This document shows, one piece after another, positions 2,255 through 49,096 of a stretch of 64,000 bases of DNA; the first letter of the stretch is position 1; the number at the start of each line of letters is the position of its first letter. A program made the position numbers and the translations under genes. This DNA comes from a virus. The notes under the pieces are model-generated. The model made no database searches. It worked only from the letters and a program-made list of their open reading frames with translations, and was not told the DNA's origin. The DNA lies in the IMG/VR virus record IMGVR_UViG_3300027841_000073, positions 1 to 64,000 of that record; one strand, written 5' to 3'.

Positions 2255-2533
2255 TTATTCACCTATTATCTTTTCTATTTTTTCAATAAGGGCAAATCTT
2301 TGTTCCATTCTTGCTGTAATATCCACAAACCTAAATAACTCAATAATTTTTTCAGCTTTTTTCTTATCAATTTTATATCTATTCATTAAATTATACGTTA
2401 CATTTTTCTTATTATCAATAAGTTCACTTTCTAATTTACTTTTCATTTCTTCATATATCATTGCTTGATCGCTCATAGCTAACATTTTCCTACGTTTTAA
2501 TATGAATTGTTTTTCTTTAATTGTAATTTTCAT
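2255..2533 (-). CDS. KITA-tagged small protein
   Basis: Begins MKITIKEKQFILKRRKMLA; AAGGAG SD upstream. Confidence 0.75.
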   Translation of the reverse strand: MKITIKEKQFILKRRKMLAMSDQAMIYEEMKSKLESELIDNKKNVTYNLMNRYKIDKKKAEKIIELFRFVDITARMEQRFALIEKIEKIIGE

Positions 2534-2542
2534 TATTACTCC

Positions 2543-3319
2543 TTATAAACTATCCAGATATTCTTGCCACGTCATAATAGAAGTCGGGTCCGTCCAATCC
2601 GGGTCTTCTTCCATACTTGCTAATGCAGGGGGTTTAGCAGGATCAGTAGGATCAATCATAAAATCTTTTCCATATACTAATCCATTACCATCTAAATCTT
2701 CATTACCTTGATATTCACTTACTAATGCCGCAAATGCAGGGGGTGGAGTAGGCGGAGTACCACCTAAATTTGGAGCATGACCACATTCCCCTAAACCATT
2801 ATTAGCATTTTTGTCCCATACTCTACATGCTTCTCTTACACAAAAAGTAGTTGTATCCGTAACAGCAATTGATTGTACTACATATTTATGACTACCATAA
2901 GGATCAGGTTCACCAACAGGGAACATTTGTCTAATAGTATCACCCGGTTTATAAACATGATTTGGTTGCCATTCAGGGTAAAGAATAAATGGTTGGTTGT
3001 ATTGTAATTCCCATTGTATTTCATTATCACTTACTGTTGGAGTAGGGCCGGGAGTAGTACCTTGTGGAAACCAACTAGGCGGCATACTACCAGATTCCCC
3101 ACCTTCTTTAGCATAAAATATCCCACTTTCCCTTGGATCAAAAATTACATATCCAACAGGATCAGTAGGGGGTGCGCCGGAAGAAACCCATGCTGAACCA
3201 TTCCATGATTCCCATTCATAAGTAGAACCTGTCCAAAGCATCCGCCAAGTAAATCCACCAATTACTATTAATGATTTAAATTTAAAATACCCTTTATGAG
3301 GGCAAAGAAAACCCGGCAT
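2543..3319 (-). CDS. Pro/Trp-rich baseplate-region protein of unknown function
   Basis: 258-aa ORF coupled to the gp5-like gene. WQPNHVYKPGD resembles a small carbohydrate-binding-type module. Confidence 0.55.
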   Translation of the reverse strand: MPGFLCPHKGYFKFKSLIVIGGFTWRMLWTGSTYEWESWNGSAWVSSGAPPTDPVGYVIFDPRESGIFYAKEGGESGSMPPSWFPQGTTPGPTPTVSDNEIQWELQYNQPFILYPEWQPNHVYKPGDTIRQMFPVGEPDPYGSHKYVVQSIAVTDTTTFCVREACRVWDKNANNGLGECGHAPNLGGTPPTPPPAFAALVSEYQGNEDLDGNGLVYGKDFMIDPTDPAKPPALASMEEDPDWTDPTSIMTWQEYLDSL

Positions 3320-4350
3320 TATGAATCTCCTTTCAAACTATTCGCTTCACTTTCCAACTTAGCTTTTACTTCTTCCCCTCTACTTTTTAAATTTTCAGCT
3401 AATGTTTTTAATTCATTTAGTTTGGATGTTAAATTACTTATTTCACTTTCCAAATCAGCGATGCCACTTTCTAAATTACTCATATCCGGGGGAGTAGGTG
3501 GAACAGCGGGAATAGGTGTAGGGGGTGCTTGATTATGAGCTATTAAAGTACCCATATGTGCTATTAAACCACTTGACAATATACCTTGAACAGAACATTT
3601 TATAAAGTGTGCGCCACCTACTTGTTCTGCTAAATTACCAGCACTAACAAAAAATATATTTGCACCCATGCAGGATAAGTTTGCACTTGCATTTATATTT
3701 ACATTAGCTCCCGCACTTAAACTATAAATAGCACCTACGTTTATATTGTCATTCGCAGAAACATCCCTACTATAATTAGTACATTTCAGATTATAATTTT
3801 CACCCACTTGTATATTAAAATTTTTAGCGATATTCAAATTATAATCTTCCCCTATATCGTGTGTTAAACTTTTAGGATGTACTATTACTAAATTCCCTTC
3901 TTTATCAATTCTTATTACTAACCCACTTACATGATAATATTCTGCATACTGTTCTTTTTTATTTACTCTATAAAAGGAAACTGTAGAATCAACGAAACCA
4001 TAACTTTCGGGGTAGTCTTCATCGAATATATCTTGCTTTGTATTGCTATTTTTAAAAAAGCCTTTGTAAACTGGAAAATAAACATTGTCTTTATTTGGAA
4101 AATAAACAGTAATAAGGCTGTTTACTTCTGGTATTATTGTATTACTTAAATCCGGTCTACCACCTAAAGAACTAATGCCTTGTGGATAACACCATGGCAA
4201 TTTTTCAATGTCATCCGATTCTAATATTTTTGGTATTTTAACTTTTATTCTGCATAATTTTTCAGGGTCATCGTTTTTTACTACTATACCACGAAAATCA
4301 CCTTCTAAATTATTTTCTCTTTTAAAATATTCAATGGCTTTTAGAAGCAT
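3319..4350 (-). CDS. Baseplate central spike (gp5/gpV-like) with C-terminal coiled coil
   Basis: RGIVVKNDDPEKLCRIKVKIP...LPWC..P OB-fold signature, followed by beta-helix-like repeats, a Pro linker and a heptad tail. Confidence 0.85.
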   Translation of the reverse strand: MLLKAIEYFKRENNLEGDFRGIVVKNDDPEKLCRIKVKIPKILESDDIEKLPWCYPQGISSLGGRPDLSNTIIPEVNSLITVYFPNKDNVYFPVYKGFFKNSNTKQDIFDEDYPESYGFVDSTVSFYRVNKKEQYAEYYHVSGLVIRIDKEGNLVIVHPKSLTHDIGEDYNLNIAKNFNIQVGENYNLKCTNYSRDVSANDNINVGAIYSLSAGANVNINASANLSCMGANIFFVSAGNLAEQVGGAHFIKCSVQGILSSGLIAHMGTLIAHNQAPPTPIPAVPPTPPDMSNLESGIADLESEISNLTSKLNELKTLAENLKSRGEEVKAKLESEANSLKGDS

Positions 4351-4389
4351 TAAAAATTATTCCTTTTACTATTTAAAAATACATATACC

Positions 4390-47828: not shown

Positions 47829-47831
47829 ATA

Positions 47832-48074
47832 TTACCTTTTATCGGGATCACCATAATAAAAGTAAACATCATCAGAATTTAATTTATTCTTTTTTATTTC
47901 TTTATCTATATTCTTTTTTATTTGTTTAGCATCTTTTACATTACCTGTTTTACGTAATTCTTGATAAGTTTTCACCCAATCCCCTAATCCTGATTTCATT
48001 ATTGCATCAAGATTAGCTTGTATTTTTCTACGTTTCAGAATTAGTTGTTTCTCACTTGCTGTAATCTTGAACAT
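47832..48074 (-). CDS. KITA-tagged small protein
   Basis: MFKITASEKQLILKRRKIQA. Confidence 0.8.
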   Translation of the reverse strand: MFKITASEKQLILKRRKIQANLDAIMKSGLGDWVKTYQELRKTGNVKDAKQIKKNIDKEIKKNKLNSDDVYFYYGDPDKR

Positions 48075-48095
48075 TGTTTTATCCTTTTAATTTAA

Positions 48096-48449
48096 TTAAG
48101 CACTCTTGGCGGCTACATATTGAATCTTCATGTCAATGAGATTAGGATTACCAAAATAAAAAATAGTAGCAGTAGCAATATTCTCAAAAGAAAATAATTT
48201 AGTAGTAATTGCTGTATTTGCAATGTCACCTACTTTTACTTCAAAAGGACTGGATGCCATGGCAAACAGTATATCAAATTCCCCTGTAAGAAGTACATCT
48301 GTAACACCTGCCTCAATAAGTAATTCCCCTTCTGAAAAAGATTCAAAAGTGAATTCCTTTTCGATTTCTTGTGCAATACACCTACGGGATTGCGTTCCCA
48401 AATCCTTGATTAACGTCGTAATCCATTTGAGATTTATTGAATTTGCCAT
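48096..48449 (-). CDS. Small beta-rich putative structural protein
   Basis: AAGGAG SD; 117 aa. Confidence 0.6.
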   Translation of the reverse strand: MANSINLKWITTLIKDLGTQSRRCIAQEIEKEFTFESFSEGELLIEAGVTDVLLTGEFDILFAMASSPFEVKVGDIANTAITTKLFSFENIATATIFYFGNPNLIDMKIQYVAAKSA

Positions 48450-49096
48450 TGTTCTCTCCTTTTTAGTATAAATTGTTTTTCACTACTGGTTATTTTAAAT
48501 GGGGTAGAATCCAACTGTTTGGAAAGTAATGTACCTTTTTCTTTTAACATATCAGGATCAAGCAAAACCCAATAATCCTTGGAATCATTTTGCATACGAT
48601 ACTTATACTTAAAATTAAATTTTTTACGTAATGCATTAACCATTGTTTCGTATAAATCTTTTCTACTATTAATCAATTCATCATCAACAACTCCAAACAT
48701 CAAAAAGTATATATTCAATTTACTTTTAGCTTTTTTGATAATATTCAACAAAGTAGCAAATAAACTAAAAATATCCTTATCGTTTTTCTTGTCTTTATCG
48801 AATCTGCTATTATCAATGGTAAAATTTATTTCATACATAACTACATAATGATGTCTATGGCCTAACAATTTGTCAATTATAACATTGAATTTTTTGAAAT
48901 CAACTTTGCTTGGAAACCTATACACAATAGGCTTTAATTCTACTTTTACTTCCCTTCCATCTTTTAATGTAAAATTAGCATTAACCTTTTTTACAATAAA
49001 AGTTAAAGGTTTTCTGTCTATAATAACCTTTACTTTTTTAGCTATATATTTTAAATTGTATGAAAAAGGAGTATCAAATAATGCAATAGTTTTCAT
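48434..49096 (-). CDS. Protein with C-terminal KITA tag
   Basis: Ends PFKITSSEKQFILKRREQWQIQ*. Confidence 0.7.
   Translation of the reverse strand: MKTIALFDTPFSYNLKYIAKKVKVIIDRKPLTFIVKKVNANFTLKDGREVKVELKPIVYRFPSKVDFKKFNVIIDKLLGHRHHYVVMYEINFTIDNSRFDKDKKNDKDIFSLFATLLNIIKKAKSKLNIYFLMFGVVDDELINSRKDLYETMVNALRKKFNFKYKYRMQNDSKDYWVLLDPDMLKEKGTLLSKQLDSTPFKITSSEKQFILKRREQWQIQ

Follow-up and report, generated by a model that had tools for sequence, protein, structure and literature searches.

The uncultured virus record IMGVR_UViG_3300027841_000073 from IMG/VR (73,712 bp), the first 64 kb of which form the window, the whole stretch of DNA analysed here, encodes a recurrent 19-residue peptide, hereafter the tag, in 27 copies distributed over 25 open reading frames (ORFs) that all lie on the minus strand between positions 2255 and 49096. 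As judged from alignments within the record and with foreign proteins, the tag is a discrete, portable module with sharp boundaries, under selection at the level of the peptide, and it is conserved in related uncultured phages whilst the protein bodies attached to it turn over. The phages that use it are most likely a rare lineage of uncultured jumbo myoviruses. We favour the view, with a probability of roughly one half, that the tag is a portable label for loading proteins into the virion, which would make it a functional counterpart of the capsid-targeting sequence (CTS) of phage T4, removed by a maturation protease.

Census of the tag

Seeds found with a regular expression were used to build a profile hidden Markov model (HMM), which was rebuilt from 25 copies and applied to the complete record translated in six frames. 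All 27 copies were recovered in this way, and a second, independent profile search led to the same 27 places, with E values from 8.6e-17 to 6e-3; neither search found a copy at 49100-73712 or on the plus strand. The regular expression for ILKRR-type strings had itself matched 16 sites, every one on the minus strand. An earlier sequence-only reading of the window had counted 27 copies in 25 ORFs, with 19 listed N-terminal starts, five internal copies, one C-terminal copy and two tandem doubles, and had confined them to a minus-strand block with none in the plus-strand region; count and confinement were both reproduced, and the placement agrees exactly.

Twenty-five of the copies score between 26 and 44 bits with the HMM, the weak ones being those at 26305 (12.7 bits) and 39933 (6.7 bits). 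In 20 triplet-shuffled windows the best score did not exceed 10.3 bits and a total of two matches reached 10 bits or more, hence the copy at 39933 is by score alone within the noise, close to the best shuffle scores, yet its pattern fits by eye. Six ORFs have the tag solely in an internal or C-terminal position, whilst both tandem second copies (at 23874 and 24736) occur within N-terminally tagged ORFs. The internal copies have the K of KIT at 28825, 29410, 33194 and 38972, or, in the weak copy, the T at 39933; the C-terminal copy is at 48496. The individual copies, identified by the HMM over the six-frame translation and/or by the independent profile search, are as follows.

2477-2533, minus: N-terminal tag of a 92-aa ORF (2255-2533) inside the baseplate module; 38 bits
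23884-23940, minus: N-terminal tag, first of a tandem pair, ORF 23731-23940
23821-23877, minus: tandem second copy with F before it, ORF 23731-23940
24178-24234, minus: N-terminal tag, ORF 23998-24234
24746-24802, minus: N-terminal tag, first of a tandem pair, ORF 24605-24802, paralogue of 23731-23940
24683-24739, minus: tandem second copy, ORF 24605-24802
25855-25911, minus: N-terminal tag, ORF 25609-25911
26252-26308, minus: degenerate N-terminal tag, ORF 25973-26308; 12.7 bits, E 1.7e-12 in the independent search
26621-26677, minus: N-terminal tag, ORF 26321-26677
26946-27002, minus: N-terminal tag, ORF 26679-27002, the body of which has tagged homologues in contigs L003 and L026
28371-28427, minus: N-terminal tag, ORF 28089-28427
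28772-28828, minus: internal tag, aa 77-95 of ORF 28550-29056, with M-S-F and a Shine-Dalgarno (SD)-like AAGGAA ahead
29357-29413, minus: internal tag, aa 63-81 of ORF 29063-29599, with AAAGGAG...ATG TTC ahead; possible internal start
30559-30615, minus: N-terminal tag, ORF 30262-30615, directly upstream of a cement-like gene
32465-32521, minus: N-terminal tag, ORF 32237-32521
33141-33197, minus: internal tag at the junction of the GNAT domain and C-terminal domain, ORF 32577-33563
34757-34813, minus: degenerate N-terminal tag of a 417-aa ORF (33560-34813); 27.5 bits
35626-35682, minus: N-terminal tag of an ART-PolyVal-like protein, ORF 34813-35685
37385-37441, minus: N-terminal tag, ORF 36818-37444 (start 37444)
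37862-37918, minus: N-terminal tag, ORF 37514-37921
38394-38450, minus: N-terminal tag of an R-S-E ADP-ribosyltransferase-like protein, ORF 37932-38453; foreign orthologues untagged
38919-38975, minus: internal tag, aa 85-103 of ORF 38472-39224; 37 bits
39886-39942, minus: weak internal tag-like stretch in a ParB/Srx-motif protein, ORF 39190-40143; 6.7 bits, E 0.006
45675-45731, minus: N-terminal tag of a Cdc48/VCP-clade AAA ATPase with an HNH intein, ORF 43920-45734
46040-46096, minus: N-terminal tag, ORF 45755-46099
48015-48071, minus: N-terminal tag, ORF 47832-48074; a foreign orthologue (P0056) retains the body, with the KRR degraded
48443-48499, minus: C-terminal tag, ORF 48434-49096, overlapping the start of the next gene (48449)

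The K-R-R-E codons of the C-terminal copy at 48443-48499 (AAAAGGAGAGAACAATG) also constitute the SD sequence and ATG of the gene starting at 48449, and the stretch 48434-48499 could alternatively represent a frameshifted internal tag.

Sequence and predicted shape

A logo compiled from 66 tags, 25 from the window and 41 foreign, gives the 19-residue consensus (M/F)-K-I-T-A-x-E-K-x-φ-I-L-K-R-R-x-φ-x-[A/S], and conservation ends beyond residue 19. By position, the residues are:

Positions 1-6: F/M, K, I (invariant), T (invariant), A, x
Positions 7-12: E (65/66), K, x, L/F, I, L
Positions 13-19: K, R, R (65/66), K, V/A/I, x, A/S/G (55/66)

An F stands before every internal copy. The tag is strongly basic, with a mean hydrophobicity of -0.33 and a longest hydrophobic run of three residues (φ-I-L). 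A Sec/Tat signal peptide, which would have a hydrophobic core of 7-15 residues following a basic n-region (with a twin-Arg motif in the case of Tat), is thereby ruled out, just as the sequence-only reading had maintained. That reading had also described the tag as an amphipathic helix, for which there is no support because the helical hydrophobic moment is low (0.15). An AlphaFold2 (AF2) model of one tagged protein has residues 6-23 as a helix, with a pLDDT of only 32-44. The conserved residues are spread over more than one helical face, a distribution that would fit a peptide held by a partner better than one lying on a surface.

Module boundaries and selection on the peptide

The 173-aa tagged protein encoded at 37932-38453 has two foreign orthologues, P0100 and P0101, which are about 50% identical to it over the body and begin with M at the residue right after the tag (residue 19/20). 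A comparable boundary is seen in ORF 32577-33563, the N-terminal GNAT domain of which has 21 homologues in multi-domain proteins, none tagged and some containing ART-PolyVal or LPD domains; most of these homologies end at aa 117-129 of the ORF, and the tag starts at 123. Three internal copies keep an M and an SD-like sequence ahead of them, and these internally tagged ORFs look like fusions between an untagged and a tagged gene, which may also be read from the internal start.

When the tags were masked and all bodies compared with one another by BLAST, the sole related pair was 23731-23940 and 24605-24802, as expected from the earlier claim that the bodies are unrelated apart from one paralogous pair. 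In both of these double-tagged paralogues (23494-23940 and 24260-24802, minus strand), an in-frame TAA falls just after ...IKEHPxSK..K, and past it the frames stay open for 79 and 115 codons, encoding a K/E-rich coiled coil that fills the gap to the next gene; this could be a case of programmed readthrough or a two-isoform design.

At the nucleotide level, 41% of identical-residue pairs among the tags use different codons, against 47% expected from the codon usage of the same genes. Leucine is encoded by TTG, CTT, CTA, CTC or TTA, alanine by GCA, GCT, GCG or GCC, and the Arg-Arg pair by CGT-AGG, AGG-CGT, AGA-CGT or CGC-AGA, whilst third codon positions are 56% identical within the tags and 33-36% identical in the flanks on either side. 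Since synonymous codons are nearly randomised, selection must act on the tag peptide rather than on the DNA. The spread of a DNA cassette is consequently rejected as a general explanation, accounting at most for the one paralogous pair.

These data bear on the proposal that the tag is a degron or other stability signal, or else the neutral remnant of a recombination cassette that spreads together with a ribosome-binding site. Recombination of tag-bearing gene heads is indeed evident from the tandem and internal copies, and from the three with an M and SD-like sequence. However, the randomised codons and unrelated flanks speak against recent spread of DNA other than in the paralogue pair, and approximately 35 foreign clusters retain the peptide, which implies that purifying selection has acted over a long time. 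In a neutral remnant, I3, T4, E7 and R15 would not have stayed fixed or almost fixed across 66 copies, and there is no link to a known protease degron. We therefore reject both the degron and the neutral cassette, as very improbable, on the evidence of conservation and codon usage.

The tagged proteins

The tagged ORFs have a median length of 118 aa and comprise one or two domains each. Their bodies are mostly basic, with a median isoelectric point (pI) of 9.2 as opposed to 6.8 for untagged proteins (Mann-Whitney p = 0.03), and cysteine is absent from 19 of the 25. Pfam identifies an ART-PolyVal domain, a type of ADP-ribosyltransferase (ART), in ORF 34813-35685, a weak ART match in ORF 36818-37444 and a GNAT domain at aa 26-106 of ORF 32577-33563, the last being of the type found fused to ART-PolyVal and LPD domains in other proteins. 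ORF 37932-38453 has invariant Y-R-G, T-S-W-T and E-x-E motifs and a weak sequence match to the arginine ART Vis; the best structural matches of its AF2 core are nearly all ADP-ribosyltransferases, albeit with weak E values. The DGHHR motif of ORF 39190-40143 was read from the sequence as a ParB/Srx signature. The 604-aa product of ORF 43920-45734 has a single Pfam AAA domain, split by an intein with an HNH domain, and its AAA C-extein matches the D2 domain of p97/Cdc48/VAT (E 7e-18). Pfam, motif and fold matches agree with the ART-like, ParB/Srx-motif and AAA ATPase bodies proposed by the sequence-only reading, with the GNAT domain in addition. For ten small tagged proteins of the window and ten foreign tagged proteins, Pfam gave nothing above its cut-offs, and three cargo bodies searched by tblastn had no match among 50,697 sequenced phage genomes.

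Two HNH inteins were observed, one in the Walker region of the tagged Cdc48-type AAA ATPase (43920-45734, minus strand) and the other in the large subunit of ribonucleotide reductase (RNR; 62420-64000, plus strand).

Tags in other phages

A HMMER search with the tag profile against 1.84 billion representative proteins returned 56 matches with E <1e-3, about 21 of which were the window's own and about 35 foreign clusters. Foreign tags lie nearly all at residue 1-4, few being internal or double, and two foreign proteins have the divergent form FKITPEEADDIIERR. Among the contigs encoding tagged proteins, that of P0053 is 124 kb long and that of P0032 19 kb. Two foreign proteins, P0040 and P0014, carry a divergent acidic version of the tag, FKITPEEADDIIERREALAEGW, such that there are two tag dialects; in P0040 the acidic tag is followed by a conserved '...KHKITKCMKKM...DDPGAFCA' body and a second, canonical tag.

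A loose nucleotide pattern matched 41 loci in metagenomes, with true tags only on contigs L026 (seven in 14 kb), L003 (three), L036 (two) and L011 (one). The tagged genes of L026 are on the same strand as genes for an NAD ligase and a large terminase, the latter having its best matches in Phage NCTB, Erwinia phage Yoloswag, Pseudomonas phage PaBG and Vibrio phage GR7B, which belong to, or lie near, the group named 'Lupandier' (PMC7412058). Besides the tag, the bodies on these contigs have almost nothing in common with the window; the only untagged families in common are a cement-like protein (window and L003) and the NAD ligase (L026 and L011). Directly upstream of a tagged gene in L003, a 1126-aa protein (2717-6097, minus strand) has a eukaryotic-type topoisomerase IB core (PF01028, E 8e-19). 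The tagged 286-aa protein of L026 (8486-9346, minus strand) is strongly hydrophobic in its C-terminal third, with several likely membrane helices, and may be a membrane-active delivered protein.

By contrast with these uncultured relatives, tblastn of the tag against the 50,697 sequenced phage genomes (T4-like phages included) gave no match, nor did megablast of the tagged block against sequenced phages. Neither Phage NCTB nor Vibrio phage GR7B gave a match to the tag profile, the positive control being the window's own genome with 27 copies. Searching the remainder of the genome and related phages with an HMM had been proposed as a check that tags fall only in late regions: matches in the window are indeed confined to the minus-strand structural block, but these two relatives have none. 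A strict IUPAC pattern matched 0 loci in IMG/VR, and the loose pattern matched four loci in IMG/VR and 24 in GTDB, none of them a true tag by HMM. A search of sequencing runs found no RNA run and one freshwater DNA run with a small share of the query words, and a literature search found no description of the tag in a phage context.

Genomic context

CheckV estimates the completeness of the 73,712-bp record at about 28%, implying a genome of approximately 260 kb; its GC content is about 30%, and its source is a metagenome of freshwater type. All genes at 1-51622 are on the minus strand, and from 51.6 kb onward most are on the plus strand. This is a DNA phage, as the record encodes an RNR and the tag-bearing relative L026 a terminase. 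The minus-strand block is compact, with intergenic gaps of median 10 nt and at most 106 nt, and 24 of the roughly 46 ORFs at 20.7-49.1 kb carry the tag, which is thus found on half of the genes in a 28-kb stretch. The neighbouring features are:

1-14823, minus: contractile-tail module, with sheath (11287-14823), tube (10656-11225), spike OB (3319-4350) and wedge (1-1988 and 5543-5890)
27043-28077, minus: untagged head-tail connector-like protein (phrog_17327, E 1.2e-14)
29599-30246, minus: untagged acidic cement-like protein with a C-terminal jellyroll (AF2 pLDDT 81; Foldseek)
40203-41123, minus: untagged acidic paralogue of the cement-like protein, a homologue of which adjoins a tagged gene in L003

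The tail module is of the T4 type, with gp25- and gp6-like wedge proteins, and has the same gene order as in Vibrio phage GR7B; its sheath shares 38-46% identity with the sheath proteins of jumbo phages of Rhizobium and Vibrio. In the two cement-like paralogues (29599-30246 and 40203-41123) the strongly conserved C-terminal domain folds as a jellyroll (pLDDT >90), with best Foldseek matches among the cement or decoration proteins of cyanophage Pam1 (7eel_H, E 2e-5), Ralstonia phage GP4 (8h89_J) and Helicobacter phages KHP30/40. As these and the connector-like gene lie in the block, head-associated genes are interleaved with tagged ones. The sequence-only reading's description of tagged genes among head and neck genes therefore stands as regards connector-like and cement-like genes, but not as regards the capsid, portal, scaffold or protease. 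Neither a major capsid protein nor a portal, scaffold, prohead protease or terminase was identified on the 73.7-kb record, about 28% of the genome, when Pfam and PHROGs were applied to four ORFs (587, 535, 398 and 345 aa), PDB sequence search to the three longest of these and ESM Atlas to the two longest. PF03420 and PF07068 had no match on the whole record either; with only about 28% of the genome covered, however, the absence of gp21, gp22 and gp23 types means nothing. The T4 late promoter TATAAATA is not enriched (27 found, 23.5 expected).

Several other genes adjoin the tagged block. Between it and the sheath gene, 15045-20699 (minus strand) encodes an untagged 1884-aa protein with an SNF2/helicase core, which may be akin to DarB, the anti-restriction helicase that phage P1 packages. 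The block is edged by 23124-23414 (minus strand), which encodes an untagged 96-aa protein consisting almost entirely of K, E and A (pI 10.4), a composition like that of histone H1, and at its upstream end 49093-49914 (minus strand) encodes an HNH endonuclease that stands alone and has Cys-rich units repeated in its N-terminal part (phrog_99, E 8e-37). The product of 43090-43923 (minus strand), located between the tagged AAA ATPase and the 587-aa ORF, is untagged and resembles M14-type zinc carboxypeptidases, although it scores below the Pfam cut-off; whether such an enzyme lies by chance next to 25 proteins bearing a K-R-R motif is uncertain. The plus-strand region, with the intein-containing RNR and a pyruvoyl arginine decarboxylase, has no tags; the decarboxylase (58530-59096, plus strand; PF01862, E 2e-53) is an unusual auxiliary metabolic gene.

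This neighbourhood could also be read as evidence that the tag is a docking handle for another phage machine, such as the AAA ATPase of the block, through which cargo would be directed to the tail or baseplate, or unfolded and handed over. A Cdc48/VCP-clade ATPase does lie within the tagged block, which the contractile-tail module adjoins, and the tagged gene at 2255-2533 is embedded among baseplate genes. The payloads of Photorhabdus virulence cassettes (PVCs) rely on N-terminal signal peptides and the ATPase Pvc15 (PMC11495950, PMC9054023), and conserved residues on more than one putative helix face would be expected of a peptide held in a groove or pore. However, the ATPase is itself tagged, which suits cargo better than a loader, and it has one AAA domain, whereas a preprint on Pvc15 names a D2 domain in its title. 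The tube lumen of a DNA phage, moreover, holds the tape measure and passes DNA, leaving no room for 25 protein species, and Pfam and PHROG scans of 14 larger ORFs of the short contigs L026, L003 and L036 found no AAA ATPase. We consider this explanation distinctly unlikely.

Alternatively, the tag might act within the infected cell, either on newly made proteins or once they have been delivered, as a common binding motif for nucleic acid, a membrane, a host complex or a phage factory, or as the site of a modifying enzyme. By eye, the tag looks like the opening helix of a small DNA-binding HTH domain, in its K-R-R-K cluster as well as its φ-T-x-x-E-K-x-φ-φ pattern; such a motif would tolerate internal and C-terminal positions, as is observed, and the carboxypeptidase-like protein beside the block could process basic ends. 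These points are offset by the lack of any partner enzyme common to the window and the short tag-bearing contigs, by the restriction of the tag to the structural block and its absence from the metabolic block, and by the conserved small residue with which the module ends, a feature that suits cleavage better than a permanent function. An intracellular role appears unlikely on balance.

A proposed model of cargo loading

The reading we favour, that of a virion-loading label, connects the tag with the head through its gene neighbours and through analogy with the T4 CTS. During assembly of the prohead, the tag, probably a short helix, would dock on a scaffold or core protein or on the inner surface of the capsid, such that any protein bearing it would be enclosed, including domains fused upstream of an internal copy. 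A maturation protease would then cut the tag at one of two conserved sites. The first would be after A5-x-E7, a candidate because it matches the A/S/G-x-E sites of gp21-type proteases in giant phages, and cleavage here would leave KxφILKRR as the new N terminus; the second would be after φ17-x-[A/S]19, where conservation and the alignment with orthologues both end. Once released, the enzymes would be ejected together with the DNA and would act on the host from the outset of infection.

A number of observations weigh against this model. Head targeting is inferred, as no gene for a prohead protease, scaffold, portal or major capsid protein was identified on the 73.7-kb fragment (28% of the genome). 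The CTS of T4 occupies the N terminus, whereas eight of the 27 copies here are internal, C-terminal or second in tandem (5+1+2), and the tag is strongly basic and twice as long; the resemblance between the two (MK.T.QE) is too short for statistics. One tagged gene (2255-2533) lies in the baseplate module, and a 604-aa AAA ATPase with an intein is an odd cargo. The untagged orthologues show that the ART works elsewhere without the tag, the closest cultured relatives, NCTB and GR7B, do without it, and the prediction of a helix is of low confidence with a low hydrophobic moment.

In its most extensive form, which we put forward tentatively and as somewhat doubtful, the model has one 19-residue label and its receptor loading at least two dozen enzymes into each virion, in a dedicated sorting system that would supply a ready-made and quickly exchangeable anti-host toolkit. 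This would include several ADP-ribosyltransferases, an acetyltransferase, a ParB/Srx protein and a Cdc48-type unfoldase, of which the tagged AAA ATPase might help to load or unfold cargo, whilst by way of the internal copies untagged domains would also be carried in and then released by cleavage within the head.

If the tag does load proteins into the particle, giant phages can carry a broad enzymatic first-strike kit encoded by separate genes, each exchangeable by itself, and need no single polyvalent protein for it. The tag would then be a sequence marker for predicting injected proteins in uncultured phages, yielding a list of new candidate anti-defence and host-takeover enzymes, and a second portable packaging tag, unrelated to that of T4, for placing foreign proteins in phage heads. 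Should it not be a packaging tag, it is still an undescribed, strongly conserved peptide handle with a partner worth finding.

Comparison with known systems

Encapsulin cargo-loading peptides are short conserved sequences that dock diverse enzymes inside an HK97-fold shell. They are usually C-terminal, and the shell is a bacterial compartment involving neither DNA nor a protease step; the sequence of the tag is unrelated to theirs.

Polyvalent proteins of phages and conjugative elements, reportedly described by Iyer and colleagues in 2017, offer a closer parallel in content. They have in common with the present system the ART-PolyVal domain (PF18760), a GNAT domain of the kind that occurs joined to ART-PolyVal and LPD domains, a ParB/Srx domain and an SNF2 helicase, as well as the proposed role, delivery with the DNA to pre-empt host defence. 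However, their domains are strung together in one giant chain, whilst here they are separate genes, each with its own tag; the only giant is the untagged 1884-aa SNF2 protein. With a median of 118 aa and one or two domains per protein, the tagged set does not belong to this class, which is defined by many domains in one huge polypeptide.

PVCs likewise combine a portable N-terminal signal on unrelated effectors with a contractile-tail machine and a classic AAA ATPase alongside. Their signals, in contrast, are about 50 aa long, disordered and without a single conserved sequence (PMC11495950, PMC9054023), and their cargo enters the tube of a DNA-free particle. In the present case the phage has a DNA genome and the ATPase is tagged and has a single AAA domain, on which grounds assignment as a payload signal of a PVC or other extracellular contractile injection system (eCIS) acting with Pvc15 is rejected.

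Ejection and inner-body proteins of phiKZ, 201phi2-1 and SPN3US have propeptides that are cut by a gp21-like protease at A/S/G-x-E (PMC5694885). The tag resembles these in belonging to a jumbo myovirus with many, here predicted, internal proteins, and its near-invariant A5-x-E7 (often A-Q-E) fits the AQE-254, ALE-111 and AXE-12 motif, AQE and ALE being from SPN3US. It differs in that phiKZ-type propeptides are mostly at least 100 aa long with no one common sequence, and the L026 terminase and the sheath place the lineage nearest the PaBG/NCTB/GR7B group, a different one from phiKZ.

The closest counterpart is the T4 CTS, an N-terminal peptide of about ten residues (MKTYQEFIAE) that recruits the basic internal proteins, or whatever is fused to it, to the scaffolding core before being cleaved away (PMC8442874, PMC3012670). 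It is borne by the internal proteins IPI-III, Alt and gp24 (Mullaney and Black 1996; PMC3012670, PMC8442874, PMC5694885), Alt being a packaged ADP-ribosyltransferase, the propeptide of which is removed by gp21 (PMC5694885); the internal proteins of T-even phages are diverse defence proteins in which only the CTS is conserved (PMC3012670). In both systems a short conserved peptide opens unrelated, mostly small basic proteins that include an ADP-ribosyltransferase, the bodies being diverse and fast-changing and the tag conserved; both phages have a T4-type contractile tail, and the conserved residue pattern at the end of the tag is compatible with proteolytic removal. On the other hand, the tag has 19 residues rather than about ten, is strongly basic and has no significant sequence similarity to the CTS, with only M-K-(x)-T-x-Q-E lining up by eye, too short a stretch for statistics. 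Its end lacks L/I-x-E, and no gp21, gp22 or gp23 homologue was found on the fragment. Twenty-five proteins carry it on a 47-kb stretch, compared with a handful in T4, and roughly one copy in five is internal, tandem or C-terminal.

The sequence-only reading had proposed a different and much larger address-label system for packing effectors; a portable module on unrelated enzymes in the structural block agrees with this, although it would be a larger variant of the T-even idea and not a new principle. The kind of system is known, whilst this sequence, with its length, charge, internal and tandem use and scale, was not found described. The scale is most likely far larger than that on which T4 uses its CTS, and if the tag loads the particle, its bearers form by far the largest natural CTS-type cargo set known on one phage.

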